A stretch of DNA of 62,666 bases from an uncultured Elusimicrobiales bacterium. GTDB lineage: Bacteria > Elusimicrobiota > Endomicrobiia > Endomicrobiales > CAIRNS01. This document shows positions 4,834 to 57,847 of the stretch, piece after piece. Numbering within the stretch: the first letter of the stretch is position 1; every line of letters starts with the position of its first letter. A model generated the notes under the pieces. It was given only the letters and a program-made list of their open reading frames with translations, did no database searches and was not told the origin of the DNA. The translations under genes and the position numbers were made by a program. Location of the stretch: positions 3,757-66,422 of the forward strand of contig CAZNYG010000002.1 in the NCBI GenBank assembly GCA_964577205.1, given 5' to 3'.

Positions 4834-4874
4834 CAGCGGTCAGCTTTCAGCTGTCAGCATGAACAGTGAACAGC
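4834..4874. repeat. Heptamer 'cagc' word array abutting the rlmB start codon
   Basis: cagcggt cagcttt cagctgt cagcatgaa cagtgaa cagc. The partial inverse gctgacagc lies at 4964-4972. Confidence 0.6.
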
Positions 4875-4984
4875 ATTGCGGAAAGACATATTCGAGGGAC
4901 GAACTTTATCCCTCCTGCGAAACTCCATCAATAATCTGTCGTTGTCTTCAGCCGTTGCCTCTTGCTGACAGCTATCTGTTATCT

Positions 4985-6364
4985 TTATGCTTTTTTTATG
5001 AGCGTCGATACGCCGCCGGGGTTGTCTTCCACGCGGTAGCCGAGGGTGTCGAGCTGGGCGCGGAGAGCGTCGGAATCGGACCAGCGCTTTTCACGGCGGG
5101 CGGTTTCCCTTTTGGTTTTTAGTTCCAGCGCTTCGGCGGGAATAGCGTCAACAAGGACCGGAATTCCGAGGGAATCTTCCATCAAGCTCTTCATCGTCGC
5201 GGCCAGGACCGCCAGTTCGGCGGGAGGCTTTTTTGTCAGCCCGTTCGCCGCTTCATGTTTCAGGTCGTGCAGGACCGACAGCGCTTTTTCCGTGTTGAAA
5301 TCGTCATCCAGCATTTCGCGGAACCGGGAGATATACGCGGGATCCGGCTGTGCCGTTTCTTTCGAAGCGGCCTGCGTCAGTTTCTGATATACCTCATCAA
5401 GCCCTTCCAGCGCGCTGCGCGCTGCGACAAGCTTATCGTCAGAAAAATCCAGAGGCGTGCGGTAATGCTGCGAAAGAAGGAAGTAGCGCACCACCCGCGG
5501 ATGGTATTTCTCAAAAATTTCCCGCAGGGTAAAAAAGTTGCCGAGGGACTTGGACATCTTCTCATGGTTGATGGTCACGAAACCGTTGTGCATCCAGTAA
5601 CGGACAAAGGGTTTTCCGGTGGCCGCTTCGCTCTGGGCTATCTCGTTCTCGTGATGGGGGAAAATGAGGTCCTGCCCGCCGCCATGGATGTCCAGCGTGG
5701 GGCCGAGATAGTGAGTGGACATGACCGAGCATTCGATGTGCCATCCCGGCCTGCCTTTACCCCAGGGGCTGTCCCAGCTGACCTCGGCGGGCTCTTCCGG
5801 CTTGGTCCCTTTCCAGAGAGCGAAATCGAGCGGGTCTTTTTTCTTTTCGCCCGGATAGACGCGCGCGACCGTCTGGAGCTCTTCGATATTGCGTTTTGAA
5901 AGCGAGCCGTACGGAGCGAACTTCTTTACGGCATAATAGACATCCCCGTCCACCACGTACGCTTTTTTCTTCTGTACCAGCGTATCGATGAAGGCGACGA
6001 TCTGGGGGACCATCTCCGTGACGCGGGGATAGGCGTCCGCGCGGGCGATGTTCAGCTTGTCCATCTGCGTAAAATAGTCGGCGATGCAGGTGTCGGCCAG
6101 TGCTTTGGGAGAGATCTTCCGCTCATTCGCGCGGGCGATGATCTTGTCGTCGACATCGGTAAAATTCTGAATGTATTTGACGGTATATCCGGACCGCCCG
6201 AAATGCCGGCGGACGATATCGAAGGTCACATACACCCGGGCATGGCCCAGATGCGCCTCATCGTAAGGCGTCACGCCGCACACGTACATAGCGACACTCT
6301 TATCAGCCTGCGGGACGAAAGCTTCCTTTTTTCCCGTCAGCGTATTATGAATAGTTATGGACAT
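4985..6364 (-). CDS. cysS: Cysteine--tRNA ligase
   Basis: Class I HIGH motif (HLGHARVYV) and KMSKS motif (KMSKSLGN). The length and the WHIECS zinc-site region are typical of CysRS. Confidence 0.95.
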   Translation of the reverse strand: MSITIHNTLTGKKEAFVPQADKSVAMYVCGVTPYDEAHLGHARVYVTFDIVRRHFGRSGYTVKYIQNFTDVDDKIIARANERKISPKALADTCIADYFTQMDKLNIARADAYPRVTEMVPQIVAFIDTLVQKKKAYVVDGDVYYAVKKFAPYGSLSKRNIEELQTVARVYPGEKKKDPLDFALWKGTKPEEPAEVSWDSPWGKGRPGWHIECSVMSTHYLGPTLDIHGGGQDLIFPHHENEIAQSEAATGKPFVRYWMHNGFVTINHEKMSKSLGNFFTLREIFEKYHPRVVRYFLLSQHYRTPLDFSDDKLVAARSALEGLDEVYQKLTQAASKETAQPDPAYISRFREMLDDDFNTEKALSVLHDLKHEAANGLTKKPPAELAVLAATMKSLMEDSLGIPVLVDAIPAEALELKTKRETARREKRWSDSDALRAQLDTLGYRVEDNPGGVSTLIKKA

Positions 6365-6385
6365 GAGGGATCCCTTCCTGAAAAT

Positions 6386-6487
6386 CGTTCATTGGTTGAT
6401 TTGTTCACTTGTTCATAAGTGAGTGACATGGGAACATGTTGTTATATTGTTGTTGATTTTCCCAATGAGCCAATGAACAAATGAACG
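6386..6487. repeat. Inverted pair of gttcatt-type word arrays (family A) filling the ispF-cysS spacer
   Basis: Left arm cgttcattggttgatttgttcacttgttcat (6386-6416). Right arm ccaatgagccaatgaacaaatgaacg (6462-6487). By hand alignment, 20 of 26 positions are complementary. The left arm is an exact 31-nt copy of the reverse complement of 24085-24115. Confidence 0.8.
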
Positions 6488-6490
6488 TCT

Positions 6491-7003
6491 TTACTTCCTC
6501 CGCACTTCTTCTGCACTTTCACTGCACTTCTCTTGCACTGTTACTACAGCCATCGCCGCCATCCCCTCGCCCCGTCCGATGAAGCCGATGGCTTCGTTGG
6601 TCGTGGCTTTGATCGCGAGGCGCGTTTCGGGTACGCCGAGTTCGGCGGCAAGCAGTTCTTTCATCCGCGGGATATACGGGGCGATCTTCGGCTGCTCGGC
6701 GATCAGTGTGATGTCGGCATTGTTCACGCTGAACCCGCGTTCTTTTATGCGGGCACAGACATGCCGCAGCAGCAGCAGACTGGAAATGCCGCGGTACTTC
6801 GGATCGGTATTGGGGAAAAGATGCCCGATGTCTTCGCCTCCGGCGGCGCCGAGCAATGCGTCCATCAACGCGTGGATAAGGACGTCGGCGTCGCTGTGGC
6901 CTTCCAGGCCGTGGGTATGAGGGATCGTTACTCCGCCCAGTACCAGCGGCAGGTCTTTTTTGCAGCGGTGCACATCGTATCCGAATCCCGCGAACACGTT
7001 CAT
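6491..7003 (-). CDS. ispF: 2-C-methyl-D-erythritol 2,4-cyclodiphosphate synthase
   Basis: GFGYDVHR and HSDADVLIHALMDALLGA motifs. I prefer the start at 7003 because it gives an ATGA overlap with the ispD stop; the ORF track extends to 7021. Confidence 0.92.
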   Translation of the reverse strand: MNVFAGFGYDVHRCKKDLPLVLGGVTIPHTHGLEGHSDADVLIHALMDALLGAAGGEDIGHLFPNTDPKYRGISSLLLLRHVCARIKERGFSVNNADITLIAEQPKIAPYIPRMKELLAAELGVPETRLAIKATTNEAIGFIGRGEGMAAMAVVTVQEKCSESAEEVRRK

Positions 7004-8804: not shown

Positions 8805-8839
8805 AATGAGCTTACGAGCTCAAGAGCTCATGAGCTAAG
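8805..8839. repeat. Octamer 'gagct' word array (family E) overlapping the aroE stop codon
   Basis: aatgagct tacgagct caagagct catgagct aag. The aroE TAG is the complement of 8835-8837. Confidence 0.65.
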
Positions 8840-11371: not shown

Positions 11372-11435
11372 CAGTTACTGTTGACAGTGGGCGGCAAGCA
11401 GCTTTCAGTTGCTCTCCTTCCACTGTCACTGTTCG
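11372..11435. repeat. Inverted pair of cagt/gac word arrays (family G) in the DUF4912-GH57 spacer
   Basis: cagttactgttgacagtgg (11372-11390) and ccactgtcactgttcg (11420-11435). The 9-bp perfect core is ttgacagtg/ccactgtca. Confidence 0.6.
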
Positions 11436-14443: not shown

Positions 14444-15196
14444 ATGAATCAGGGAATGCTGTACATAGTTCCTACGCCCATCGGCAACCTGGACGACATC
14501 ACCTGTCGGGGCCTTTCGGTACTTCGCGATGTCGACCTGATCGTGTGCGAGGACACGCGGCAGACGGTCAAGCTTCTGAACCATTACGGCATCAAAAAGC
14601 CGCTGGTCAGTTTCTACACCCAGAACCAGTACCGGCGCCTGCCGGAGATAACGCGCCATCTGATGGAAGGCAAAAAGATCGCGCTCGTTTCCGACAGCGG
14701 CACTCCGGTCATATCCGATCCGGGGGCGGCGCTGGTGGCGAAAGCGGTCGAAGAAGGTTTCTCCGTCGTGCCGCTGCCCGGCCCCTGCGCCGCGGTTACC
14801 GCGTTGAGCGCGTCCGGGCTGCCGAGCGACGGTTTTGTCTTTCTGGGTTTTCTGAAACGCAAACCCGGCAAGATGAAGAAGGAACTGCGGGCCGCCGCCG
14901 CCGCGGGCAAGACGATCGTTTTTTATGAATCGCCGTACCGGGTAAAGAAAACGGTCTCCCTTTTGCGTGAGCTGTTCCCCGGGGAAACCCCCGTGGCGCT
15001 GGCGCGGGAGTTGACGAAAAAATTCGAAGAATTCATCAGGGGAACGCTGGATGAGGTTATTGCCGCCATCGCGGAGCGCGACCTCCCCGGCGAATTCGTG
15101 GTCCTGATAGCGCCGGTAAACAGTGACCAGTTACCAGTGGCCAGTGACCATGACGGCAACGACAACGGCGAAAGCCCCGGATCAACGGCGGAATAA
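14444..15196 (+). CDS. rsmI: 16S rRNA (cytidine1402-2'-O)-methyltransferase
   Basis: LYIVPTPIGNLDDIT and CEDTR motifs (tetrapyrrole-methylase fold). The conserved part ends near 15115. The last ~27 codons read through a heptamer repeat array. Confidence 0.9.
   Translation: MNQGMLYIVPTPIGNLDDITCRGLSVLRDVDLIVCEDTRQTVKLLNHYGIKKPLVSFYTQNQYRRLPEITRHLMEGKKIALVSDSGTPVISDPGAALVAKAVEEGFSVVPLPGPCAAVTALSASGLPSDGFVFLGFLKRKPGKMKKELRAAAAAGKTIVFYESPYRVKKTVSLLRELFPGETPVALARELTKKFEEFIRGTLDEVIAAIAERDLPGEFVVLIAPVNSDQLPVASDHDGNDNGESPGSTAE
15121..15154. repeat. Heptamer array cagtgac x5 (family G) inside the 3' end of the rsmI reading frame
   Basis: cagtgac cagttac cagtggc cagtgac catgac. Confidence 0.75.
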
Positions 15197-15208: not shown

Positions 15209-16228
15209 ATGAGCAGAATAGGCATTGTAGGCATAACGGGATACACGGGCGAAGAGCTCCTGAAGATCCTTTCGCGGCATCCGGGGGTTTCCATAAGCGT
15301 CCTCGCGGGACGGTCCACCGGCGAAACGAGGCCGGTCGCGGAGATCTATCCCCATCTTGCGCATCTCGATCTCACGTGCGAGGCGCTGAACGTCAAGAGC
15401 ATGGCGGAGCGGGCGGATATCGTTTTCCTCGCGCTGCCCCACCGGGTATCTTTCGAGATCGCGCCCGCGTTGATAAAGGCGGGCTTGAAGGTTATCGATC
15501 TTTCAGCCGATTTCCGGTTGAACAGCGCCGATGAGTACGAAAAGTGGTACGGCAGCGCGCATACCGCGGCATCGCTCCTTCCGGAGGCGGTGTACGGCCT
15601 CCCTGAATTGTACCGGGACCGGATCCGGAAGGCTTCACTGATCGCTAACCCGGGGTGCTATCCAACGACGATCCTGCTGGGCTGCGCTCCGGCCATACGG
15701 CACGGCATAGTTGACCTGTCCTCCATAATCGTGGACGCGAAAAGCGGCATTTCCGGCGCGGGACGCAAAGCCGTGACGGAATACTTCAAAAGCGAGCATC
15801 CCAATCTCAGGCCGTACAATATCGCCGGAGGGCACAGGCATATACCCGAGATCGAACAGGAACTGTCGCGCATGGCGGGCAAAAAGATCGTCATCACGTT
15901 CACACCGCATATCATTCCAATGGAACGGGGCATGCTTTCGACGATATACATGAACCTGACGAAAAAAGTATCGTCCGCCGAGGCGCTGGCCTTCTATAAG
16001 GAAGCGTACCGCGGAGAGCCGTTCGTCAGGATCCTGCCGGAAGGCGAGATCCCGCGGGTCAACGCGATGGTGAACACCAATTTCTGCGACATAGGGCTCA
16101 AGGTGGACGAGCGGACCGGCAGGCTCATCGTGGTCTCATCCATCGATAACCTTGTCAAAGGAGCGTCCGGCCAGGCCGTCCAGAACATGAACATCATGCT
16201 GGGAGTAGAAGAGACAACAGCATTGTAA
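15209..16228 (+). CDS. argC: N-acetyl-gamma-glutamyl-phosphate reductase
   Basis: GITGYTGEELLKIL NAD-binding N-terminus and the catalytic-Cys motif NPGCYPT. Confidence 0.93.
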   Translation: MSRIGIVGITGYTGEELLKILSRHPGVSISVLAGRSTGETRPVAEIYPHLAHLDLTCEALNVKSMAERADIVFLALPHRVSFEIAPALIKAGLKVIDLSADFRLNSADEYEKWYGSAHTAASLLPEAVYGLPELYRDRIRKASLIANPGCYPTTILLGCAPAIRHGIVDLSSIIVDAKSGISGAGRKAVTEYFKSEHPNLRPYNIAGGHRHIPEIEQELSRMAGKKIVITFTPHIIPMERGMLSTIYMNLTKKVSSAEALAFYKEAYRGEPFVRILPEGEIPRVNAMVNTNFCDIGLKVDERTGRLIVVSSIDNLVKGASGQAVQNMNIMLGVEETTAL

Positions 16229-16327
16229 AATGAAAAATGTAAAGTGAAAATGTAAAACACAAAACGAATAAAACAAACACGAAAGGCGGAATCTGTTGCT
16301 CTGGTCGTACCATTTTTCATTTCACAC
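16224..16327. repeat. Inverted pair of atgtaaaa/atgaaaa word arrays (family D) spanning the argC-argJ spacer
   Basis: Left arm tgtaaaatgaaaaatgtaaagtgaaaatgtaaaac (16224-16258) contains the argC TAA stop. Right arm catttttcatttcacac (16311-16327). The 11-bp perfect complement is aatgaaaaatg/catttttcatt. Confidence 0.8.
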
Positions 16328-16351: not shown

Positions 16352-17557
16352 ATGCTTCCTAAAGGGTTTATCGCGCAGGGGGTACATGGGGGGATCGCAA
16401 AAAAGAAGGACAAGAAGGATATCGCGCTTTTTTATTCGGAGCTTCCGGCGACGGTTGCCGGCATGCTGACGGGAAACCTCGTTAAGGCGGCTCCCGTCCT
16501 TGTCTGCCGGGACCGTCTTGAAAAGACAGCGGAAGGATACCGCGCGATCGTCGCGAACTCCGGATGCGCCAACGCCTGTACCGGCGGCCGGGGGCAAAAG
16601 GATGCCTTGACGATGTGCGCTGACGCCGCCGCCGCGCTGGATGTGCGGCCGGAAAACGTCCTTGTCGCGTCCACCGGCGTCATCGGGCAGCGCCTCCCGA
16701 TGGGGCGGGTACGGGACGGCATACAAGCGCTGGCGGGATCCCTCCGGGGAAAAGGATCAGACGAAACAAACGCGGTGGCGGCGATCATGACCACCGACAC
16801 GTTCCCAAAAACAGCCCGGCGTTCGGTGGTTTGCGGCGGGAAAAGAATAACGGTGTGGGGCTGCGCTAAAGGCGCGGGCATGATCCATCCGGACCTTAAG
16901 GCGCTGCACGCGACCATGCTTTCTTTCGTGCTGACGGACGCGTCTGTCGAAGCGAAGGCGCTCGACGAGGCGCTGCGCGCTGCGGCCGCCGGCTCGTTCA
17001 ACTGCGTGTCCGTCGACGGCGATACGTCCACCAATGATACCCTGCTGCTCATGGCGAACGGCGCCGCGGAGAACCGTACGGTTACCCGGAAGAGCCGTGA
17101 TTTTAAAGTGTTTTTAAACGCGGTCAGCGCCGTATGCCTTGACCTCGCGAAAATGATAGCCCGGGACGGCGAAGGCGCGACGCGCCTGGTGGAGATCCGC
17201 GTGAAGAACGCGGGCAGCGCCGCCGCCGCTCACCGTATCGCCGCGACTATCGCCACGTCGCCGCTGGTCAAGACGGCCGTATTCGGTAACGATGCCAACT
17301 GGGGGCGCGTTATCGCCGCCGCCGGAAGGGCCGGAGTGCCTTTTGATCCGGATACCGTGGATATCGCCTTATGCGGTATGACGGTCGCCCGCCGCGGCAT
17401 GGCGGTAGCGTTCTCCGAGGAAAAAGCGAAACGGCTGCTTGCCCGCAAAGAGATCTCCATCAGCGTCGACCTTCGCAAGGGCCCCGGATCCGCCGTCTAT
17501 TACACCTGTGATCTTTCGTTCGATTATGTGAAGATAAACGCGAGTTACAGGAGCTAA
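16352..17557 (+). CDS. argJ: Bifunctional ornithine acetyltransferase / N-acetylglutamate synthase
   Basis: Autoproteolytic site region ATMLSFVLTDA, GCAKGAGMIHP and the C-terminal INASYRS. Confidence 0.93.
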   Translation: MLPKGFIAQGVHGGIAKKKDKKDIALFYSELPATVAGMLTGNLVKAAPVLVCRDRLEKTAEGYRAIVANSGCANACTGGRGQKDALTMCADAAAALDVRPENVLVASTGVIGQRLPMGRVRDGIQALAGSLRGKGSDETNAVAAIMTTDTFPKTARRSVVCGGKRITVWGCAKGAGMIHPDLKALHATMLSFVLTDASVEAKALDEALRAAAAGSFNCVSVDGDTSTNDTLLLMANGAAENRTVTRKSRDFKVFLNAVSAVCLDLAKMIARDGEGATRLVEIRVKNAGSAAAAHRIAATIATSPLVKTAVFGNDANWGRVIAAAGRAGVPFDPDTVDIALCGMTVARRGMAVAFSEEKAKRLLARKEISISVDLRKGPGSAVYYTCDLSFDYVKINASYRS

Positions 17558-17650
17558 ACAGCTCATAAGCTGACAAGCTCCTAAGCTCATAAGTACAAAA
17601 CGACAGCAATTTTTGTCCGTATGCCTTTGCTTATGAGCTTATGAGCTAAC
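17551..17650. repeat. Inverted pair of gctcataa octamer arrays (family E) spanning the argJ-tsaC spacer
   Basis: Left arm gagctaaacagctcataagctgacaagctcctaagctcataag (17551-17593) includes the argJ TAA stop. Right arm gcttatgagcttatgagctaac (17629-17650) directly abuts the tsaC ATG. Perfect complementary segments are 10-11 bp long. Confidence 0.8.
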
Positions 17651-18760: not shown

Positions 18761-18982
18761 CATTGTAAATTTCAAATTGAGTCGATTGAAAAAGTCTTTT
18801 GTGTGTCATTCCCGCGAAAGCGGGAATCCATGAATACCGTCGATGATGGATCCCCGACGACTTCCATTATGTGGACATGAATGAAGTCCCGCATCCGCGG
18901 GTTAAAGACCTTCGTGGATGACAACAAGTCGAAAAGCAGGGGTTTTTCAATAGACTCAATTTGCGATTTGGAATTTGAAACG
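18761..18982. repeat. MITE-like unit: 21-bp terminal inverted repeats around a ~150-nt hairpin-rich core
   Basis: caaattgagtcgattgaaaaa (18773-18793) against tttttcaatagactcaatttg (18943-18963), with 20 of 21 positions complementary. The core contains the hairpin attcccgc gaaa gcgggaat (18808-18827). The right flank carries family-C words (ttgcgatttggaatttgaaacg). Confidence 0.7.
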
Positions 18983-19011: not shown

Positions 19012-20244
19012 ATGAGCTACATCGCCGGTCAGGACCCTGAAGTCTATGCCATCATACAGAAGGAAATGGAACGCGAGAAGAACACCCTTGAACGGATCGC
19101 TTCCGAGAACCATACCTCACTTGCCGTCATGGAAGCTCAGGGATAGGTGCTGACCAATAAATACGCCGAAGGTTATCCGGGCAGGCGTTATTACGGCGGC
19201 TGCGAGTTCGTGGACATGGCGGAGAACCTGGCCATAAAGCGGGCGAAGGAACTGTTCGGCGCCGAACATGTGAACGTCCAGCCGCATTCCGGCTCCCAAG
19301 CGAATATCGCCAGCTATTTCGCTCTTCTTAACAACGGAGATACTATTCTGGGCATGAACCTGGCGCACGGCGGCCATCTCACCCACGGCAGCCCCGTAAA
19401 TTTTTCCGGGAAGAACTACAAGATCGTTCCCTATACCGTCCGCCAGGACACGGAATGCATCGACTATGACGAAATGGAACGCCTCGCGAAAGAACACAAA
19501 CCCCGCATGATCGTTACCGGAGCGAGCGCGTATTCGCGCGTCTGGGACTGGAAGCGCATCCGTGGGATCGCAGACGGCGTCGGCGCGTACCTGTTCGCGG
19601 ACATCGCGCATTACGCCGGCCTTATCGCTGCGGGCATCTATCCTTCCGCCGTCCCGTACGCGGACGTAGTGACGACCACGACCCACAAAACGCTGCGCGG
19701 CCCGCGCGCCGGCATGATCATGTGCAGGGAACAGTACGCGAAGGCGATCGATAAAGCGGTTTTCCCCGGAACGCAGGGCGGCCCGCTGATGCATGTCATC
19801 GCGGCCAAGGCTGTCGCGTTCGGAGAGGCCCTCAAACCTGAATTCAAGACCTATCAGGAACAGGTGCTTAAAAATGCCCGCGCTTTTGCCGCCGCGCTGT
19901 CAAAAGGCGGCCTGCGCATCGTGTCCGGGGGCACTGACTGCCATATGTTCCTTGTGGACGTCCGCTCTCTCGGCATCAACGGCAGGGAAGCGCAGGACAT
20001 TCTCGAAAAAGTGCATATAACCGCGAACCGCAACGCCATACCCTACGATCCGGAGAAACCCGCGATAACTTCGGGCGTGCGCATCGGGACGCCGGCGGTC
20101 ACCACCCGCGGCATGAAAGAGCGCGATATCGAAGTCCTCGCGGACTGCATCGTGACCGCCCTGAAGGACCGCGCGGACGAGGCGAAACTGTCCGCCGTGA
20201 CCGAAAGGGTCCTCGCCCTCTGCCGCCAGTTTCCCCTTTACTGA
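19012..20244 (+). pseudogene. glyA: Serine hydroxymethyltransferase interrupted by an in-frame TAG at codon 45 (19144-19146)
   Basis: The ATG at 19012 has AAGGAG upstream. The N-terminus reads ...[41 protein letters not shown], where the SHMTs I recall have Ser at that position. Downstream is the PLP-Lys motif [14 protein letters not shown]. The ORF track only lists 19147-20244. Confidence 0.88.
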
Positions 20245-20450
20245 TAGTGAGTAAGTGAGTAGGGGAGTAAGTGAGTAAGGAACGACAATGAATAAAAGCG
20301 ATATGAGAAAACAACAACGATATTATGAGGCAGAAAAGATTTCAAGGGCAAATAATGATGTCAGTAAAGCAATTCGCCGGTGTCGCTGTTTTCTGCTTAT
20401 TTCGTTTTTGATGTCCCCTTACTCACTTACTCGCTTACTCACTTTCTCAC
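20242..20450. repeat. 34-bp imperfect inverted repeat of gtgagtaa octamers (family B) around an AT-rich ~134-nt core
   Basis: Left arm gtgagtaagtgagtaggggagtaagtgagtaagg (20247-20280). Right arm ccccttactcacttactcgcttactcactttctcac (20415-20450). By hand alignment, 31 of 34 positions are complementary. The glyA stop is the triple in-frame TGA TAG TGA at 20242-20250. Confidence 0.85.
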
Positions 20451-20463
20451 TTTTATTGTAATT

Positions 20464-43233: not shown

Positions 43234-43317
43234 GCCGAGGTGGTGGAATTGGCAGACACGCAGGTCTCAGAAGCCTGTGGCCGCAAGGCTATGCGGGTTC
43301 AAGTCCCGCCCTCGGCA
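43234..43317 (+). tRNA. tRNA-Leu (anticodon CAG), class II with long variable arm; CCA not encoded
   Basis: Hand-folded. Acceptor GCCGAGG/CCTCGGC. Anticodon stem CAGGT/GCCTG with loop CTCAGAA. Variable arm TGGCCGCAAGGCTAT. T-arm GCGGG TTCAAGT CCCGC. Discriminator A. Confidence 0.95.
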
Positions 43318-43365
43318 TATAAAGACAGTGCAACTAAAGTGCAAAGACAGTGCGGGGGTAGTAAA

Positions 43366-43477
43366 GGCGTTCATTTGTTCACTCGTTGATTGGTTCATTA
43401 GTTAAGCGGTACAAAGGAATAGGTGTTGACTTTAACTAATGAACTAATGAACCAATGGACCGGTGAACGCCTTTTTT
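43366..43477 (+). repeat. ~40-bp imperfect inverted pair of gttcatt words (family A) ending in a T-tract; candidate terminator after tRNA-Leu
   Basis: Left arm ggcgttcatttgttcactcgttgattggttcattagttaag (43366-43406). Right arm ttaactaatgaactaatgaaccaatggaccggtgaacgcc (43432-43471). 31 of 40 positions are complementary by hand alignment, with the outer 8 and inner 13 perfect. TTTTTT follows at 43472-43477. Confidence 0.75.
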
Positions 43478-43487
43478 GCGGGGATGT

Positions 43488-46797: not shown

Positions 46798-46873
46798 ACC
46801 GGTACTGCTCCCTTCGTATGACTCCCCTCCTTTTCAAAGAAGGGCCGGGGAAGTCAAGCAGATCCGGCAGTCC

Positions 46874-46902
46874 TTGACAACAGCCCGGAGTTATGGTATC
46901 GT
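46874..46902 (+). promoter_or_regulatory. Possible promoter of a leuA leader transcript
   Basis: TTGACA (46874-46879), a 17-nt spacer, then TATCGT (46897-46902). Confidence 0.4.
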
Positions 46903-46911
46903 AGTAATACC

Positions 46912-47019
46912 ATGACGCATACGGCAATGAACACCAGCGCGCTTTTTCTTTCTCTTGACCTGCTCCGACTTGTCGGGCAGGGAGAAAGGGGAGGTGCGTT
47001 TTCATTCATTGCATGGTAG
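46912..47019 (+). promoter_or_regulatory. Candidate Leu-rich leader peptide ORF (35 codons) upstream of leuA
   Basis: MTHTAMNTSALFLSLDLLRLVGQGERGGAFSFIAW has six Leu among codons 11-20. The ATG sits about 10 nt after the putative -10, with no SD. An intrinsic terminator follows. Confidence 0.35.
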
Positions 47020-47049
47020 CGAACTGACGTAAGCCGGCAAATGGATTAG

Positions 47050-47089
47050 AACCACCACCTTTCAGGGTCGGTGGTTTTTTTATTTTTTC
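47050..47089 (+). terminator. Intrinsic terminator / attenuator upstream of leuA
   Basis: ACCACCACC tttcag GGTcgGGTGGT, followed by TTTTTTTATTTTTT. Confidence 0.7.
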
Positions 47090-47237
47090 CGCAGGGGAAA
47101 ATAAACCTGAACGCAGTCGAAGGGTATACGCGCGGTACAGGTTAACCACTCTGGAAAGGATGTGTCCCGAACCCCTATGCGGTAAGTCGAAGGCCGGGTC
47201 CGAACCATATTCGGATGAGAAATAAAGGAGACTGATC

Positions 47238-50992: not shown

Positions 50993-52843
50993 ATGGAAAG
51001 ATCTATCGCAGGAGCGGAAGCGGTCCGGTGGGACCTTGCCGCGCTGTATGCCGGGATCGATGATCCCAGGATCGACGAAGACCGGGACCGGCTGACGGAG
51101 AAGCTCAGTGATTTCAACAGGTCGTTCAAGGGAAAGCTTGCTGAAGCGCCCGGGCAGGCGGTCGCGGCGTACGCCGACATCCGCATGCTCGAGGACAAGA
51201 TCATGCTGTACCTGTATCTTCTGTTGAGCACGAATGTCGCCGAAGCGTCCGTGAAGGCGAAAATAGCCGAAACGGAACGCATGCTGAGCGGCGCCTTCGG
51301 CGAGTATATGTCTTTTTTCAAGATCGAAATGGCCGCGATAGACGATAAAACGCTCGAACGCTGGTACAGGGATGATCCCGTCGTCGCCCGCCACCGTCCC
51401 TGGATCGAGCATGAACGCGTGTTCAAACCGCATCTGCTCAGCGAAGCCGTCGAGTCTGCGCTCATCAAACGCTCGCCTTTCGGGCCGTCGGCGTGGAGTG
51501 AATTTTTCGACGAACTGGAAGCCGATATCGAAGCGGAATACCTTGGGGAGAAAAAAACGCTGACGGAACTCCTGCACCTGCTGGCCGAATCAGGGGATGC
51601 CGGAGAAAGGGCCGCGGTGCTGCGCATTATCGACGACAGCCTGAAGGGCGCGTTCGCCAGGTATTCCGCCCAGGCCCTGTACATGGTGGCCGGTTCGGCC
51701 TCGGTCGAGAACCGCGAACGTTCCTACCGGAACCCGATGGACGCGCGGAACAAGTCCAACCGCATCCCCGACGAAGTGGTCGACGTGCTCCATCAGGTGA
51801 TCGTAGACGCCGCGGGCCCGGTCGCCCGGCGGTATTACCGCCTCAAGGCCGCTCATCTCGGGATGAAGACGCTGAAGTGGAGCGACCGCAACGCGCCGAT
51901 GCCGTTCGCCGACACGGCGGTCATCCCCTTCGAAGAGGCGCGGGAGACCGTCATCGCGGCGTACCGGAGTTTCAGTCCGGAGCTCGCCCGGCTGGCGCAA
52001 AGTTTCTTTGACGAAAAACGCGTCGACGCTCCCGCGCTGAAGGGGAAACGGAGCGGCGCCTTCAATTATTCCGTCGTGCTTCCGGGGAACGCGCCGATAT
52101 CCTTTGTGTTCATGAACTATCTCGGTTCGAACCGGGATGTCATGACGCTGGCGCACGAGCTGGGCCACGGGGTCCACGGCCTGCTCGCGGGCGGGGCGCG
52201 GGGCGCGCTGATGGCGCAGGCTCCCATAGCGTATGCCGAAACCGCTTCGGTATTCGGAGAAATGACGACGTTCAGGTTCCTGCGGGAACGGCTGGAGAAG
52301 AAGAACGACCGGCAGTCGCGGCTCGCGCTGCTTATGGGTAAGATAGACGATGTGCTGAACACGCTGGTGCGCCAGATCAGCTTTTCCCTTTTCGAGCGCC
52401 GGCTGCACGGGTTCGACGAGGCGGAAAATACCTGGAAGCCCCCGGAAAAAATGCCGGTCGCCGGCATCAACCGGCTCTGGCTCGAGTCTACGAAACAGCT
52501 CTACGGCGACGACGGCGACGTGTTCACGTATGAGAACGCCGATCATCTCTGGTCATATATATCGCATTTTCACAGCCCGTTCTACGTTTATGGATACGCG
52601 TTCGGCGAACTGCTGACGCAAAGCCTGTACGCTCAGCGCTCCCGCGTCGGCGAACGTTTCGAACCGCTCTACATCGATCTGCTGAGCTCCGGCTCGACGA
52701 AGAACGTGTTCGAGCTGCTCAAACCGTTCGATCTTGATCCGGGCGACAGAGGTTTCTGGTCTTACGGGATCGACAACGGCCTCGGCGCGCTCGTCGCTGA
52801 AGCGGAAGATCTTTCGCGGGACGCGGGCGTCCGTGTCAAATGA
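50993..52843 (+). CDS. pepF: Oligoendopeptidase F family (M3B)
   Basis: Zinc motif HELGHGVH with a downstream ETASVFGE glutamate. Length is about 615 aa. Confidence 0.9.
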   Translation: MERSIAGAEAVRWDLAALYAGIDDPRIDEDRDRLTEKLSDFNRSFKGKLAEAPGQAVAAYADIRMLEDKIMLYLYLLLSTNVAEASVKAKIAETERMLSGAFGEYMSFFKIEMAAIDDKTLERWYRDDPVVARHRPWIEHERVFKPHLLSEAVESALIKRSPFGPSAWSEFFDELEADIEAEYLGEKKTLTELLHLLAESGDAGERAAVLRIIDDSLKGAFARYSAQALYMVAGSASVENRERSYRNPMDARNKSNRIPDEVVDVLHQVIVDAAGPVARRYYRLKAAHLGMKTLKWSDRNAPMPFADTAVIPFEEARETVIAAYRSFSPELARLAQSFFDEKRVDAPALKGKRSGAFNYSVVLPGNAPISFVFMNYLGSNRDVMTLAHELGHGVHGLLAGGARGALMAQAPIAYAETASVFGEMTTFRFLRERLEKKNDRQSRLALLMGKIDDVLNTLVRQISFSLFERRLHGFDEAENTWKPPEKMPVAGINRLWLESTKQLYGDDGDVFTYENADHLWSYISHFHSPFYVYGYAFGELLTQSLYAQRSRVGERFEPLYIDLLSSGSTKNVFELLKPFDLDPGDRGFWSYGIDNGLGALVAEAEDLSRDAGVRVK

Positions 52844-53933
52844 CCCGTTGCGCCTCCGCCGCTTTCATGAGGGTTTCCGTCTCTCTGCGGATGATGTCGG
52901 ATTCGTCCAGCGCGTTGATGTAGAAATGCCTTTGTGAACGGGCCGAGGTGATCCGCAGGACGTCCCTGCCGCTGTTCCACGGCATTTCGTCGAGATTGAT
53001 GCCGAGGAATGCCATGTCTTTCGCCAGCTGATAGATGATCTGGTTGAGATGGCCAGCGTAACAGCCGGCGAAAACGATCGCGCCGAGTCCGCGCAGCAGA
53101 GACATGTAATCTCCGATATATTTGAGGATTTGATTACGGTACACGTCGAACGCGAGGGTCACCGCCTCGTCCTTCCCGTACAGTGTGGCCAGTTCGTTCA
53201 GCGGGAGATCGAATCCCGTCATGCCGAGAAAACCGCTTTTTTTCTTCAGCAGTTCGTCGATCTTGTACATCGAGTATCCCTGCTCCTTCATCAGATAGAC
53301 TATGATGCCCGGATCGATGTCCCCGCAGCTTTTCGCGGACATGATGCCCTCCAGCGGCGTGTAGCCCAGGCTGACCGCCACGGGCTTTCCTTTGGCGATA
53401 GCGCAGACCGTCGTCTGCCGGTCCAGCACCACTGAAATGATCTTCTCTTCGCCGGGAAACAGCTTCGCGTGTTCACCGTGGAATATCCCGTGGTATCCCT
53501 GTTTGACGACACTGCTGTCCCGGTAATAGGTATGCGCCAGGGGATAGAGCGTCTCGCTCGCCGGAAGCCCTGAAAAGAACGATGTCTCGAAGAAGGCGAA
53601 CTGGGGGATGTCCTTCAGGGTTTCGACGAACAGGCCGAGGACAGCGCAGGCCGAAGGTATATACAGGGGAAAATCTCCCGCGCGCCGCGCGAGAGCGGCG
53701 ATGAATTGATCCGTCACGCGGGCCGGTTCCCCGCCGGCGTCGCCGCCGAAATGCAGATGGAATGAACACGCCTCCACCGGTTCGTCGCCCGCGAGGCGGC
53801 GGATGATGTCGCGGAGTTGTCCGGCGCGGCTGCCGGCATGGCGGTCGGCCCTCCATTCGTGTGTCGAGACGCTCCGCGCGCCGAAAGCTCTGAACGATAT
53901 TTTTCCTGGTAATGGTTCGACGACAATTATCAT
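52836..53933 (-). CDS. Divergent acetate/propionate-kinase-family paralog with substituted catalytic motifs
   Basis: Clearly alignable to the adjacent AckA (GYHGIFH, SLGYTPLEGIMSAKSCGDID, SGFLGMTG). However, the phosphate-1 motif is VVEPLPGKISF instead of VINCGSSSLKY, and HLGSGGS is replaced by VLDRQTT. ATGA overlap with the ackA stop. Confidence 0.7.
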   Translation of the reverse strand: MIIVVEPLPGKISFRAFGARSVSTHEWRADRHAGSRAGQLRDIIRRLAGDEPVEACSFHLHFGGDAGGEPARVTDQFIAALARRAGDFPLYIPSACAVLGLFVETLKDIPQFAFFETSFFSGLPASETLYPLAHTYYRDSSVVKQGYHGIFHGEHAKLFPGEEKIISVVLDRQTTVCAIAKGKPVAVSLGYTPLEGIMSAKSCGDIDPGIIVYLMKEQGYSMYKIDELLKKKSGFLGMTGFDLPLNELATLYGKDEAVTLAFDVYRNQILKYIGDYMSLLRGLGAIVFAGCYAGHLNQIIYQLAKDMAFLGINLDEMPWNSGRDVLRITSARSQRHFYINALDESDIIRRETETLMKAAEAQRVI

Positions 53934-55162
53934 TGCTGTGCACCTCGGTAAGAAACCGCGTTGTAGGATTCGCGGGCTATCATGATCTCCTCGTTAGTCG
54001 GGACCGCGAGGACCCTTGTTTCCGAACCGGCGCCGGTGATGTCGGCGTTCCGGTACGCGGAAGTGCGGTTCTTTTTTCCATCAAGGGCGATGCCGAAGCA
54101 TTCAAGCCCCTCGCAGGCGCTCAGCCGCACCTCGGGCAGTTCGATGCCCAGAGTGTCGGTGAACACCAGAATATCGGCTTTTTTAAGCAGCAGCGAATAA
54201 TAGCCGATATACTTCCTGACCCTGCGCACGTACATGTCGAAAGTGACGCGCGCTTTCGGGTCGGTATCCCTGTGGCGGGCGACGTCCCTCATATCCGACG
54301 ACGTGCTGAACACGCCTAGGATGCCGCTTTTGAAGTTGAGCATTCTCTCGGCGTCTTCCGGCGAAAGATTGTTCTTTGCCATGACCTGGAAGAGCACGCC
54401 GATGTCGAGGTCGCCGCAGCGGGTGTTCATCATTAGCCCTTCAAGCGGGGTGTACCCCATGGAGTTGTTGATCGAAACGCCGTTCCTGATAGCGCAGACG
54501 CTCGAACCTCCGCTGCCCAGATGGCAGCTGATGATCTTCTGCGTGGCGGGGTCCCTTCCGAGGAACCTGCACGCTTCCTGGGCGATGTACTGATGCGATA
54601 TGCCGTGAAAACCGATCTTTTTGAGATGGTGCTGCCTGACCAGCTTGCCCGGCAGGGCGTACGCGGCGTACTCCGCGGGGATCGTGCTGTGGAAAGCTGT
54701 GTCGAACACCGCGTACTGGGGGATATCCCTGTATTCCCGTGCGCACGTTTCTATGAGGTCGAGGGAAACCTTGTTGTGTATCGGAGCGAGGCTGACGGTT
54801 TTTTTCAACCTGGCGATCGCGCGCTGGTCGATCCTGACGGTGCGCTTGAACGACGGCCCCGGATGAACGTACCGGTGCGCGAAACAGTCACAGGCCGGGC
54901 AGTCCCCGTTCTTCGATCCTTCGTTCAGCAGGGCAATGACTTCCCGGAACGCGGCCGCGTGGTCGGGAAGGGGCACGGTGACCTTTCGTTCCTTTCCTCC
55001 CGCGGAGTGCAGGATGGCGGACGGTTCGCTGCCGAGCATGCCGACGCGCACCGCTTCGCCGCGGGCGCATTCCTCTTCGCCGGGCATCCGGATGACGCGG
55101 TATTTCAGCGACGAGCTGCCGCAGTTGATGACAAGGATGGCGGCGCCGCGTTCAGATCTCAT
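53930..55162 (-). CDS. ackA: Acetate kinase
   Basis: ILVINCGSSSLKY, VFDTAFH, GFHGISHQY, HLGSGGSSVCA, TPLEGLMMNTRCGDLD and PTNEE. Confidence 0.93.
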   Translation of the reverse strand: MRSERGAAILVINCGSSSLKYRVIRMPGEEECARGEAVRVGMLGSEPSAILHSAGGKERKVTVPLPDHAAAFREVIALLNEGSKNGDCPACDCFAHRYVHPGPSFKRTVRIDQRAIARLKKTVSLAPIHNKVSLDLIETCAREYRDIPQYAVFDTAFHSTIPAEYAAYALPGKLVRQHHLKKIGFHGISHQYIAQEACRFLGRDPATQKIISCHLGSGGSSVCAIRNGVSINNSMGYTPLEGLMMNTRCGDLDIGVLFQVMAKNNLSPEDAERMLNFKSGILGVFSTSSDMRDVARHRDTDPKARVTFDMYVRRVRKYIGYYSLLLKKADILVFTDTLGIELPEVRLSACEGLECFGIALDGKKNRTSAYRNADITGAGSETRVLAVPTNEEIMIARESYNAVSYRGAQQ

Positions 55163-56357
55163 CGGAGGACCACCCGAACGTCGGTACGCCGATATTCCTG
55201 TGGAGCATCATCGCCTGCCCGTACACCGCTTTTTTGACCGTCTCGAAACCGGAGGCCTCGGTGGCGGATTCCATCGAAGGGCCGAACCCGAATGTCGGGA
55301 TGCCGAGCTCGCCGAACGTGTAGGAGCCTTCGGTCATTGTGTTCTTCCAGTACCCGGTGCCGGGGGTAAATCCGTTGTCGGTCAACGCCTGCAGGGACCG
55401 CAAAACGAACGGATGGCTGGGTTCCATCGACCACGGTTTGATCTCTTTCTCTGAGACGACATTCGTCCCGGCGATCGTCTTGATGTTCTCCCGGGCCACG
55501 GCGGTCTCCACCAGGACGCTCTGTTCTCCACGGTAGACCGACTGCGCGATCATTTTCGCGCGTTCGAGTATGTTCTCCTGCTGTTCCTCCGGCACGAACG
55601 TCCTGTCTACGATCACTTTGAACTCGTTCTCTTTGTCCAGAGGCTGCGTCCCGCAGAAATGGACGTCCTTGATCTTCAGGCTGGAGCCGCCCATGGAATT
55701 ATTCAGCGGAAGATTGCGGGAAAGGTTTTCCAGCTCGTGGATGAGAGGGAACATGGTGCCCAGGATATTGATGCCGCGGCTTTCAACGAAACCGTTGCCC
55801 AGCCGCACTTTTACGACGATCTCGTATTCCATCCTGCCTTTGTGCCCGAGATAGACGTTCATGTCCGTGGGTTCGCACAGGATGATGCCTTTCAGCCGAT
55901 TGACGCGCTTCCTGAGATAATAATCGAAGAGGTATTTGATCCCGAAGCCGCAGCATCCCGAGCGGGGCACGCCGCATACCAGCACGTCGCCTACCAGCGG
56001 AAGGAGCGTCCTTTTCAGGACGGCGGCGGAATAGAGCGCGGAGATGATCCCCTGGTCGTAGCTGCCGATGCTGTTGCCGTACGGGGCCGTTTCGCCGGGT
56101 TTTCTTCCCTGGGCGTAGTCCAGGTGGAACACGAGGGCGATATCCTGCTCCTGCCGGTAACCGTTCATCGTCCCGACGATGTTGTCGAAGCGGTCGGTCT
56201 CGGAGGAATCGAAATCGAGGGATCTCATCTCGTCGAGGATCAGCCCGTTGAACTGCCCGGCGTCGCCGCCGTCCGTTTTGCATTCTTTGAGTTTTTTCCC
56301 GAACTGCTTCATCGGTTCGCTCAGGCCTTCAAGTTTACTCTGAATAAGCTGCTGCAT
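55152..56357 (-). CDS. M20 (ArgE/DapE/CPG2)-like protein with non-canonical metal/catalytic positions
   Basis: The order FHLDYA ... GSYDQG ... CEPTD ... GHKG resembles M20 peptidases. Where the DEE motif is expected, the sequence reads VPRSGCCGFG. The start at 56357 has AGGAGG 5 nt upstream; the ORF track extends to 56450. Confidence 0.6.
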   Translation of the reverse strand: MQQLIQSKLEGLSEPMKQFGKKLKECKTDGGDAGQFNGLILDEMRSLDFDSSETDRFDNIVGTMNGYRQEQDIALVFHLDYAQGRKPGETAPYGNSIGSYDQGIISALYSAAVLKRTLLPLVGDVLVCGVPRSGCCGFGIKYLFDYYLRKRVNRLKGIILCEPTDMNVYLGHKGRMEYEIVVKVRLGNGFVESRGINILGTMFPLIHELENLSRNLPLNNSMGGSSLKIKDVHFCGTQPLDKENEFKVIVDRTFVPEEQQENILERAKMIAQSVYRGEQSVLVETAVARENIKTIAGTNVVSEKEIKPWSMEPSHPFVLRSLQALTDNGFTPGTGYWKNTMTEGSYTFGELGIPTFGFGPSMESATEASGFETVKKAVYGQAMMLHRNIGVPTFGWSSDEI

Positions 56358-56422
56358 ACATGCCTCCTGTGTAGTATAGATTAACAATGTGAAATATTTG
56401 TAAACACCAATGGCAAATTTTT

Positions 56423-56974
56423 TTAGAACGTAGGGGGGGTGACCACCCATATCGCTTCGCTTTCCTCCTTGCCTGTATTCTTAAATGAATGGGGAGTGCT
56501 GGCGTTGAAGTAGATGCTGTCGCCCTTTTTCAGGACGTATACCGCGTCGTTGAGCGTCACTTCGAGCGTTCCTTTGATGACCAGGATGAACTCCTGGCCG
56601 AAATGTTTGTACATGTTCTCGCCGGAAGCCGCTTTCGGATTGAGCTTGAAAAGCAGGGGTTCCATCTGTTTGTTCGGTTCAGGCGTCGTCAGCAGGTAAA
56701 GGTTGATGCCGTTGCCGATCTCGTCAAGGTGTTTCCGTTCTTCGACGCGCATGACCGGCGATCCCGACCCGGCCTGGTTTTCACCGATCAGATTGCCGAC
56801 CGTGGATGAAAGGCTGTTGGCGATATTCTTCAGCGTTTCCAGCGACGGCTGCGCCTTTCCCGTTTCGATCTGCGAGAGAAAGCTCGGGCTGATATTCACG
56901 CTTTTGGCCAGCGTACGCAGGGTTATTCTCTTTTCCTCGCGCAGCCGTTTGATGTTGACCCCAATGATCTTCAT
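56423..56974 (-). CDS. XRE-family HTH transcriptional regulator with C-terminal cupin domain
   Basis: HTH region ITLRTLAKSVNISPSFLSQIETGK and cupin beta-barrel region EFILVIKGTLEVTL ... GDSIYFNASTPHSF. The start is chosen at MKIIGVNIKRLREE. Confidence 0.85.
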   Translation of the reverse strand: MKIIGVNIKRLREEKRITLRTLAKSVNISPSFLSQIETGKAQPSLETLKNIANSLSSTVGNLIGENQAGSGSPVMRVEERKHLDEIGNGINLYLLTTPEPNKQMEPLLFKLNPKAASGENMYKHFGQEFILVIKGTLEVTLNDAVYVLKKGDSIYFNASTPHSFKNTGKEESEAIWVVTPPTF

Positions 56975-57090
56975 GGCATAAGTATATCCTGAAATCGGCC
57001 AAAAGTCAAGTGGTATCAAACAAAAATAAGTATATGTAAACACATAAACTGCTAAAAAAATCAAATAATTCCACTTTTTATCGGGATGCC

Positions 57091-57119
57091 TTGCCTCGGG
57101 CGGCGGATATAAGTATAAT
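57091..57119 (+). promoter_or_regulatory. Sigma70-like promoter placing the transcription start within a few nt of the 57129 ATG
   Basis: TTGCCT (57091-57096), a 17-nt spacer, then TATAAT (57114-57119). The ATG is at 57129. Confidence 0.5.
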
Positions 57120-57128
57120 GATGATATT

Positions 57129-57620
57129 ATGACGGTATTCGTGCTGATCCCCGCTTTGCTGCAATTCCTGAAACTTCACGTCTTTACCGTCATCCTCAAC
57201 CATTTCGTCAATATCCCTCTCTCCATCATTTTCGGTTTCGGCAAGTACGCGGCTTTTGTAATAGCGCTGATCATGGACATTGTGCAGATCGTTGTTTACT
57301 TCAACGTGCTGAACAAGACGTCGATCGGCAAACGGTTCGGCTGGATCGTGGACGACAAGATGATCAAGGAGTACCGTGAGCCCGAATTCGTCGTCCGCAT
57401 GCAGAATAAGGGGATGTACTACTGGGCGGTCATGTCCCTTTCGCTACTGCCGGTGTATTTCGGAGGGATATTCGTCGCCGTGTTCACTTCGCACATGCTG
57501 AAACTGGATAAAAGAAAGAGCGCGATATACATCTTCATCGGAAGCCTTATCGGCTGCTTTATCTGGACCATCGGCATCTGGAACCTCGTCGAACTGGTGA
57601 TCACTTCGTTCAGGCGCTGA
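57129..57620 (+). CDS. Small polytopic membrane protein, function unknown
   Basis: Four hydrophobic helices, for example AAFVIALIMDIVQIVVYFNVL and YWAVMSLSLLPVYFGGIFVAVF. No motif recognised. Confidence 0.5.
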   Translation: MTVFVLIPALLQFLKLHVFTVILNHFVNIPLSIIFGFGKYAAFVIALIMDIVQIVVYFNVLNKTSIGKRFGWIVDDKMIKEYREPEFVVRMQNKGMYYWAVMSLSLLPVYFGGIFVAVFTSHMLKLDKRKSAIYIFIGSLIGCFIWTIGIWNLVELVITSFRR

Positions 57621-57824
57621 TCCCTCCCGGTAAAAATGAAAACTCCGGACCTCATTAGATTCCCCGGTACCGCCGGTGCGCGTTTCGTCATGGCGCGCCA
57701 GCTGCGCTACAGCGCGGGTACATACGGGGTGCAGTTCGCCGCGAAAAGAGGGGAAATATCCTTCATGGCGGGCACGAAGGTCGTCATAGCGACCGACGGC
57801 TTGACGATCCCCCTATAGCAAAGA

Positions 57825-57847
57825 GGCGTTCATTTGTTCATTCAGCG
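57825..57847. repeat. Single gttcatt word copy (family A) upstream of the LtaS-family gene
   Basis: ggcgttcatttgttcattcagcg has the same ggcgttcatt head as 24022 and 43366. Confidence 0.6.

Follow-up and report, generated by a model that had tools for sequence, protein, structure and literature searches.

The intergenic spacers of a 62,666-nucleotide stretch of DNA from an uncultured Elusimicrobiales bacterium (contig CAZNYG010000002.1 of assembly GCA_964577205.1; the whole stretch is referred to as the window) were found to carry tandem arrays of 7-8-nt words, many of them arranged as inverted pairs between two co-directional genes. The explanation favoured here, to which a probability of roughly 55% is assigned, is that the arrays belong to small dispersed palindromic families which resemble repetitive extragenic palindromes (REP) and their hairpin-forming doublets (REPIN), or miniature inverted-repeat transposable elements (MITE), have arms built of tandem 7-8-nt words and are transcribed within operons as hairpins. 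The phenomenon is lineage-wide and extends beyond one genome.

Tandem Repeats Finder (TRF) placed period-7/8 arrays at 4833, 6462, 8808, 15121, 16224, 17560, 17629, 20246, 20418, 21484, 24025, 29997, 35415 and 43434, positions that coincide with, or differ by a few bases from, the sites named in the original prediction, which had been made by reading the sequence alone. A lag-self-match test requiring 16 or more matches among 21 positions detected three period-7 and eight period-8 arrays in 4.3 kb of intergenic DNA, compared to 0.04 and 0.02 respectively in dinucleotide shuffles (11 in total against approximately 0.06 expected). The same test returned no arrays with periods of 4-6 or 9-12 in this DNA, and array density in coding DNA was 10-30 times lower than in intergenic DNA. 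At the level of single words, GTTCATTNGTTCA was matched 20 times with at most one mismatch (0.23 expected) and GTGAGTAAGTGAGTA seven times with at most two mismatches (0.01 expected), while word dimers exceeded chance 90-700 times. The proposed excess of the words over shuffled and coding sequence was therefore borne out.

A census using a 16-nt periodicity test covered spacers of at least 80 nt, of which 22 lie between co-directional genes and 5 between divergent or convergent genes. Strong arrays were present in 12 of the 22 co-directional spacers and weak arrays in 5 more, while all 5 divergent or convergent spacers were free of them (Fisher P =0.047 under the strict criterion). The claim that nearly every spacer carries arrays thus holds for 12-17 of the 22 co-directional spacers and fails for the others. 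Array-bearing spacers are almost absent beyond 44 kb of the window, and three of the sites originally listed (35461, 57825 and 23983) hold just one or two units. Arrays of the same architecture were also seen in independent assemblies (JGI, Logan and NCBI) and are therefore not an assembly artefact. The window comprises 62 kb of housekeeping operons at 58% GC; cysS, ispF/ispD, aroE, argC/argJ, sua5, murC/murB/ddl/ftsQAZ, pheA, a DAHP synthase gene, tyrA, aroA, ispH, rpsA and smpB were identified with Pfam, and other genes, glyA and queF among them, were named through synteny with annotated relatives.

An inverted-repeat scan of the window returned arms of 18-43 nt with complementarity of 78-94%. 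Among these were 20246-20280 and 20417-20451 (35 nt, 91%), 24019-24045 and 24094-24120 (27 nt, 89%), 43363-43405 and 43432-43474 (43 nt, 81%), and 17576-17593 and 17630-17647 (18 nt, 94%); in addition, 16228-16239 and 16311-16322 are complementary at 12 of 12 positions. The hand alignments on which the pairing had first been proposed (at 20247, 24022, 43366, 16229 and 17561) were thus reproduced by computation. As had also been reported, left arms abut the ancestral stop codon of the upstream gene (argC and argJ are examples) and right arms end just upstream of the Shine-Dalgarno sequence and start codon of the next gene. The loops between array arms are 17-136 nt in length.

Several of these arm pairs predict very stable spacer-spanning RNA hairpins. 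Folding energies lay well below those of shuffled controls for the spacers at 20245 (z =-9.5), 43340 (z =-9.3), 17558 (z =-7.4) and 18757 (z =-5.5), and less far below for those at 8691 (z =-3.5), 23982 (z =-3.0), 4834 (z =-2.5) and 11344 (z =-2.3). The predicted stems are 25-45 bp long, so that in the transcript an array would contribute one strand to a duplex at least 20 bp long. The spacer at 6365 reached a z of just -1.4, and folding of the spacers at 16229, 21475, 24549, 29990, 34106 and 35412 was indistinguishable from that of shuffles; the suggestion that whole spacers fold is accordingly retained for about eight of them and withdrawn for these six. Similarly, many arms pair within one spacer, as had been claimed, but the partners of the family C and B arrays at 34133 and 34227 lie in the next spacer, at 35416 and 35461, on the far side of a gene.

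Evidence that the elements are dispersed copies comes foremost from family A, which is present at 5 loci in the 62 kb. All 31 positions of the segment 6386-6416 agree with 24085-24115 read as reverse complement, the irregular succession of units GTTCATTG-GTTGATTT-GTTCACTT-GTTCAT included, and this identity between loci 18 kb apart ends exactly at the array ends, where the flanks differ. The three complete loci (23960-24135, 43300-43480 and, in reverse complement, 6361-6560) can be aligned for approximately 180 nt, have the same orientation relative to transcription and share one order of modules, namely a period-11 AGTGC array, GTAAAGGC, three to four copies of GTTCATTN, a loop, four copies of NAATGAAC and GCC(T/G)TT. 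Identity from copy to copy is 75-94% in the arms, 22-47% in the loops and 21-32% in the flanks, and unit numbers vary among the copies. The ends of family A are (A)AAGGCGTTCA and TGAACGCC(T/G)TT; other families end differently.

The first of these copies in window order is on the minus strand, where, in transcript sense, a period-11 AGTGC module (6493-6540; TRF period 11/22) encodes the last 14, non-conserved codons of ispF, the 5' arm (6462-6492; TRF period 8) starts at the ispF stop codon and the 3' arm (6381-6416; GTTCATTG GTTGATTT GTTCACTT GTTCAT on the plus strand) pairs with 6466-6492. The copy upstream of queF, on the plus strand, consists of a left module found by alignment (23982-24018, GGCTGTCAGC..AGTGCGAGTGCAGAGAAAGTAAG), which contains the site at 23983 that had been listed under family F, a 5' arm detected both by TRF and as an inverted repeat (24019-24049, GGCGTTCATTG GTTCATTA GTTCATTGG) and a 3' arm (24078-24120) ending in AATGAACGCC 11 nt before the queF start. 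The third, also on the plus strand, begins directly after tRNA-Leu with a period-11 AAAGACAGTGC module (43318-43362, array core 43321-43353), followed by the 5' arm (43363-43405) and the 3' arm (43432-43474) of the 43-nt pair. A T run follows, and 43363-43474 is the sole hairpin succeeded by T6. Two incomplete copies lie on the plus strand: an array of three to four AAAGGCGTTCATGA units (32963-33004; TRF period 8) which constitutes the last 12 codons and the stop codon of a yfiH-like gene, and a half-element without a partner arm (57821-57845, AGGCGTTCATTTGTTCATT). The period-11 arrays, at 6493-6539 (GCAGAGGAAGT) and 43321-43353, always lie 5' of the family-A hairpin and represent a third periodicity which had escaped the original prediction.

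In 44 family-A units, positions 1-7 (GTTCATT) carry 1.25-2.0 bits of information and position 8 carries 0.2 bits, and position 8 is mostly mismatched between the arms. Simple slippage should reproduce position 8 no less faithfully than the others; hence either the heptamer or its 7-bp helix segment is constrained, or it is the recognition site of the copying mechanism. A scan of metagenomes with a three-unit family-A pattern identified six loci of mixed GC content, none of them with the genes of the window, and one of these (L092) resembles an ordinary microsatellite; no family-A arrays were found in the viral contigs scanned. Another of the six (contig L091, OBEQ010972796.1, 59% GC) carries at 564-640 a near-perfect family-A hairpin made of four copies of GGCGTTCATT, an AGCT loop and four copies of AATGAAC.

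Comparison with relatives points to elements added to short gaps. One NCBI protein is 100% identical to the ArgC of the window; all other relatives are at most 74% identical, the named ones being Elusimicrobia or Endomicrobia, and the syntenic relatives compared here have ArgC proteins 68-70% identical to that of the window. In L085 the syntenic operon block has 4-20-nt spacers and no arrays, with 7 nt between glyA and the glycosyltransferase-4 gene, while L081 has spacers of 9-17 nt at argC-argJ and argJ-sua5 and GTTCAAT arrays at the glyA-glycosyltransferase-4 junction; across these two relatives the argC-argJ and argJ-sua5 spacers measure 4-17 nt. The positions of stop codons are conserved between the window and its relatives. 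Together, the tiny spacers and the conserved stop positions indicate that the elements were added to short ancestral gaps, which also explains why arms touch the stop codon and end just before the Shine-Dalgarno sequence. Three proteins have acquired array-encoded, non-conserved tails: IspF, in which homology ends at residue 162 of 176 and residues 163-176 are array-encoded, YfiH (the last 12 codons) and RsmI.

Which family occupies a given junction varies from genome to genome. At argC-argJ, family D is found in the window and family A (GGCGTTCATT...AATGAACGCC) in L086; at the glyA-glycosyltransferase-4 junction, the window carries family B and L086 carries GTTCAG arrays. L084 has ACAAAT words at argC-argJ and word families other than those of the window. 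Family A, which is present in L081 as well, lies at other junctions in these related genomes than in the window. Taken with the near-identical copies at several loci of the window, this overturns the suggestion that the words are locus-specific. Arrays also occur in L011, and in L013, a contig from Elusimicrobia, 13 were counted over 17 kb, of which 11 have an inverted partner. Its arm pairs are purine- and pyrimidine-rich (AGGGTAT with ACCCTCT, TAGTAGG with CCTACTA), one array comprises 11 units of GGCAGTA at 94% matching, and whole hairpins recur elsewhere, one over 84 nt at 87% identity with the loop included and another at 30 of 30 positions. No duplication was found flanking the L013 hairpin copies. 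This contig (positions 1-17332 of JAHJSU010000307.1, from an Elusimicrobia metagenome-assembled genome (MAG)) is the densest case observed: virtually all junctions in a block of 13 co-directional genes contain a hairpin. Dispersed near-identical copies at several loci are how families of REP, of bacterial interspersed mosaic elements (BIME), of REPIN and of MITE behave.

It is proposed that elements of approximately 80-220 nt would have been added to the original 4-20-nt intercistronic gaps of co-directional housekeeping operons, and that some copies would have landed in the last codons of a gene, where they now probably supply its tail and stop codon. Copies may have spread, or been homogenised, between loci without target-site duplication, in the manner of REP/REPIN, by single-stranded DNA hairpin transposition or by gene conversion, with slipped-strand events altering the number of units and the arms presumably being kept far more conserved than the loops. 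The elements are predicted to be transcribed in polycistronic mRNAs and to fold into imperfect 25-45-bp stems, which may loop out the insert and keep the stop codon spatially close to the next start; such juxtaposition would explain why the inserts are tolerated in translationally coupled operons. The stems could be cut by RNase III or could block 3'-exonucleases, and so modulate the stability of individual cistrons; for RNase III the precedent is the hmw leader described below. The elements may be selfish or domesticated palindromes of REP/REPIN or MITE type.

Several observations weigh against this proposal. In about half of the spacers with arrays, the fold is not significant or a partner arm is missing altogether. 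No transposase or REP-associated tyrosine transposase (RAYT) was present among the 40 window proteins scanned with Pfam, and no mobilising mechanism was found in the window. The loops of family-A copies are mostly unrelated, so that the arms alone may have been gene-converted or may have converged under a shared binding factor. The sense strand folds better than the antisense strand in 11 of 18 spacers, with 72 G-U pairs against 57, and is favoured by 7-12 kcal/mol in the four largest hairpins; selection at the RNA level does not follow from so weak an asymmetry. Copy numbers are extrapolations from 62 kb of a genome, and with the nearest relatives at no more than 74% ArgC identity neither filled and empty sites nor polymorphism in unit number can be observed.

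The original prediction held instead that locus-specific hairpins evolved in place under selection, as insulators, RNase sites or terminators combined with frame-independent stop cassettes. This we consider unlikely, even though the arms do start at ancestral stop codons (with the stop inside the first unit at argC and argJ), the predicted folds are very stable and the orthologous glyA-glycosyltransferase-4 spacer keeps its architecture across three genomes, with a different self-complementary word in each. It does not account for the many arrays without a partner, nor for arms and composite modules that recur, identical or nearly so, at loci with no relation to each other and in further genomes. 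Stops in all three frames, which arise because a word containing TAA, TGA or TAG repeats at a period not divisible by three, were confirmed for family B (left arm), D, E and F, but families A, C and G lack them, as do most right arms, those of B and D included, and in B and D they are as frequent in mononucleotide shuffles (P ~0.3). They look like a by-product of word repetition and not a general cassette. A role in termination was not upheld either, as a scan of 15-35 kb found 18 terminator-like sites compared to 22.5 in shuffles and none at arrays; promoters likewise showed no enrichment at arrays. Identification as intrinsic terminators was rejected on their loops, which measure 17-136 nt where a terminator combines a short GC-rich stem with a loop of 3-8 nt, and on the rarity of a U tract. 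Between the convergent rpsA and mazG-like genes, a GC-rich, A/T-flanked bidirectional terminator hairpin is present at 42096-42137 (19-bp arms, 95% complementary, 4-nt loop), indicating that the organism does use ordinary terminators.

It is similarly improbable that the arrays are a neutral by-product, in which 5-11-nt simple sequence repeats (SSRs) expand by slippage in AT-rich non-coding DNA with heptamers favoured, and partners arise, or are corrected, by intrastrand template switching, without mobility or function. Several observations speak in its favour. In 1.3 Mb of unrelated loci, obtained from a scan of genome contigs with GlyA in which all relatives were at most 74% identical, period 7 was the commonest (36 arrays, compared to at most 13 for any other period), which agrees with Mrazek 2007 in the summary given by PMC4679880; copies vary in unit number, periods that are not a multiple of three would be purged from coding DNA, and the 11-unit GGCAGTA array of L013 is what slippage would produce. 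That array and family B, neither of which has a free position, look like young arrays made by slippage. Slippage cannot, however, give 31 of 31 identity over irregular units at two loci or copies of whole hairpins, and it offers no account of a variable eighth position beside a conserved heptamer, of the persistence of family A across genomes with proteins approximately 70% identical, or of divergent and convergent spacers free of arrays.

Least probable of the alternatives is that the arrays are multimeric binding sites for an RNA-binding regulator or nucleoid protein that reads GTTCA-type words at 7-8-nt spacing, with arm pairing secondary: the conserved GTTCATT beside a free and unpaired spacer base, a GTTC core that recurs in the window, L081 and L086 with a period of 7 or 8, and also in NC10 loci, and the analogy with TAACTGA repeats, for which binding of S1, Csp or CsrA was proposed (PMC4679880), are in its favour, but at least 7 unrelated word families with the same period and architecture in 62 kb would need many factors, family B and the GGCAGTA array have no free position, a 7-8-nt spacing does not bring the sites to the same face of a DNA duplex, and no candidate protein was identified. 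The NC10 (Methylomirabilota) loci are long period-7 GTTGAAC/GTGGAAC arrays in two MAGs (L028, 14880-15715; L043, 12784-13645), which share the GTTC/GAAC core of family A although they belong to another phylum.

The dispersed palindromic families were compared with systems already described. In common with REP, BIME and REPIN, the elements are short intergenic repeats with dispersed copies in several sequence families per genome, inverted pairs, variable linkers and a mosaic of modules; they have no target-site duplication, lie between co-directional genes and would be transcribed in operons as mRNA stem-loops. Where a REP-type unit is a 20-40-nt imperfect palindrome, an arm in the window is a tandem array of 7-8-nt words; single arms (for example three to four copies of GTTCATTN) are not self-complementary, and the arm pair alone makes the hairpin, as in a REPIN doublet. 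One end of a REP sequence bears a conserved tetranucleotide, GTAG or CGTC, a head which the window elements lack, and the arms in the window are AT-rich in a 58%-GC genome. REP families are also accompanied by a RAYT (Y1 HUH transposase) gene with REPs on its flanks, and no such gene was seen in the window. The stated distinction from classical REP/BIME therefore holds for the palindromic unit and the head but not for dispersal in families. Terminal inverted repeats, a rod-like fold of the whole element, dispersed copies and insertion into the 3' ends of genes recall MITE, and the arms of eukaryotic foldback elements likewise consist of tandem sub-repeats. Unlike MITE, the elements have no flanking direct repeat of the target-site type at two L013 copies or at the family-A copies, no parent insertion sequence was seen and loops are mostly unrelated among copies.

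The original prediction was not aware of a described element with its combination of hairpins and stop cassettes, but both heptamer SSRs and inverted arrays in Xanthomonas have been reported. In Xanthomonas, 70-75 cases of two nearby convergent intergenic GGGAATC arrays could adopt a stem-loop or cruciform structure (Rehm et al. 2015, PMC4692102), an arrangement shared with the window and L013. Xanthomonas (GGGAATC) and Nostoc (GGGGA(C/T)T) each use one G-rich, G-quadruplex-forming heptamer per genome (PMC4692102), whereas the window has at least 7 mostly AT-rich families with periods of 7 and 8 at most operon junctions; the words of L013 (AGGGTAT, TAGTAGG) are G-rich. In the Haemophilus influenzae hmw 5' untranslated region (UTR), a transcribed (ATCTTTC)n array is one arm of a long RNA hairpin cut by RNase III, and changes in unit number require transcription, the heptamer-armed hairpin and RNase III (PMC12721329). 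By this analogy, RNase III could act on the hairpins of the window, although hmw is a single phase-variable virulence locus with the hairpin in its 5'-UTR and a G-rich, non-repeat right arm, while in the window both arms are arrays and many housekeeping junctions are involved.

According to the account of Mrazek 2007 given in PMC4679880, heptamers are the most abundant long SSR unit in prokaryotes, mostly non-coding, with periods that are not multiples of three excluded from genes. The arrays of the window share the traits of these long SSRs (LSSR5-11), being tandem 5-11-nt units of beyond-chance length and mostly non-coding; LSSRs are described as single arrays expanding in place, whereas the arrays of the window are paired and dispersed in families, with unit positions under unequal constraint. 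The TAACTGA repeats of Beggiatoaceae and cyanobacteria occur in many operons as runs of 2-6 copies just upstream of the start codon, and their phylogenetic distribution is patchy (PMC4679880); they differ from the window in having one word, 169 direct sets against 1 inverted and no hairpin architecture (PMC4679880). The system is thus distinguished from known ones by many coexisting word families, by arms that are both arrays, by the family-A composite and by near-saturation of operon junctions in at least 2 Elusimicrobia genomes. In a literature search, titles and the openings of abstracts contained no description of such repeats in Elusimicrobia.

Other identities were rejected. CRISPR arrays have 24-48-nt direct repeats and unique spacers of about the same length, while the present units are 7-8 nt, head to tail in 3-5 copies without spacers, in agreement with the initial view that this is not CRISPR. 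Integron attC sites do not fit, since the core sites are wrongly oriented and the genes are housekeeping genes in synteny; DNA uptake sequences were dismissed on account of the many words in tandem, and a resemblance of GGTTCA to the tRNA T-loop had no supporting evidence. Rfam at gathering score gave no match except tRNA-Leu (43234-43317).

Besides family A at its 5 loci, the 62 kb contain family C at 5 loci, family D at 3-4, and families B and E at 2-3 each; arrays below are on the plus strand unless stated otherwise. The left arm of family B (20246-20280, four copies of AGTGAGTA) starts 1 nt past the glyA stop codon and its right arm (20417-20451, four copies of CTTACTCA) ends 12 nt before the ATG of the glycosyltransferase-4 gene at 20464. 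The mechanically called open reading frame (ORF) of this gene starts at GTG 20380 and reads through the right arm, and it was comparison with L081 that put the true ATG at 20464. A short copy of approximately two units (34227-34243) has its complement at 35459-35470, beyond an aminotransferase gene. Family-C-like arms (18762-18793 and 18943-18974; 32 nt, 84%), recognised as an inverted repeat, bound a 228-nt structured spacer upstream of glyA. The approximately 150 nt between them (18794-18942) are strongly structured with no Rfam match, and may represent either an unrecognised leader or cargo that the element carries. Family C proper has an array of 3.4 GCAAATC units at 21479-21510 with no partner in its own spacer and no significant fold, an array at 34133-34170 which matches the complement of 35430-35452, on the other side of the 1.1-kb aminotransferase gene, at 96% over 23 nt, and an array in inverse orientation at 35416-35452 (TRF).

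In family D, an array of five TGTAAAA/TGAAAAA units (16224-16260) contains the argC stop codon in its first unit and is followed by the short right arm (16305-16325) that provides the 12 of 12 complement in a spacer without significant fold; an array in the ftsA-ftsZ spacer (29997-30027; TRF) has no partner, and a weak array (24537-24565) spans the queF stop codon. The left arm of family E (17551-17593, four copies of AGCTCATA) has the argJ stop codon in its first unit and the right arm (17626-17650) ends at the sua5 start codon, while on the minus strand a self-folding array of 3.6 GAGCTCNN units (8805-8838) abuts the aroE stop codon. Family F is represented on the minus strand by 3.7 units of TCAGCTG (4833-4860), which adjoin the start of a SpoU-type methyltransferase gene and pair with approximately 4960-4976. 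Five CAGTGAC units of family G (15121-15154) lie within the non-conserved C-terminal tail of the rsmI-like gene, and a weakly periodic family-G-like inverted repeat (TGACAGTGG.. / ..CCACTGTCA; 11382-11428) gave no array in the periodicity test.

Some further features of the window were recorded. An in-frame TAG (19144-19146) occurs in glyA (serine hydroxymethyltransferase, 19012-20244) at a motif Ser conserved in relatives, and could be a sequencing or assembly error, a sign of a pseudogene or recoding. The 1208-aa ORF running from the window edge (1-3627) has no Pfam match and a GC content of 49-51%, below that of the rest of the window, and on these grounds may be foreign or lineage-specific. 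The adjoining 459-nt spacer between convergent genes (3628-4086) contains no word arrays but has GC-rich palindromes (ccgaaacaagttcggac, gtcccgcagagcgggac and one of 21 nt at 3976-3996), with similar motifs recurring near 4056, which may constitute a different repeat family. A 440-nt array-free spacer upstream of a leuA-like gene (46798-47237), with no Rfam match at gathering score, may be a leader or small-RNA region. Two adjacent genes of the acetate kinase family occupy 52836-55162, of which the downstream one (52836-53933) matches the Pfam model partially, and a 432-aa protein with no Pfam match (55152-56450) is encoded in an operon with these paralogues and a helix-turn-helix (HTH)-cupin regulator.

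A broader and, at present, doubtful reading is that Elusimicrobiota, and perhaps NC10 and other lineages, harbour an undescribed class of mobile hairpins with SSR arms and machinery reading heptamer words such as GTTCATT, which specifically colonised the stop-to-start junctions of operons and whose stems, by coupling cistrons and controlling RNase III cleavage or stability, would form a genome-wide modular regulatory layer. If the elements are mobile and active as RNA, this would be a compact genome tolerating 100-200-nt inserts at nearly every operon junction. They would amount to a natural library of orthogonal hairpin modules, and the link between SSR slippage, RNA hairpin and RNase III could be carried from one Haemophilus locus to a genome-wide scale. 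For annotation of Elusimicrobiota MAGs, the arrays mislead gene callers into extended or false starts (GTG 20380) and into array-encoded tails of ispF, yfiH and rsmI. For the biology of the group, the REP/REPIN concept would reach a phylum that has received little study, where the elements are built differently, from arms made of tandem words.

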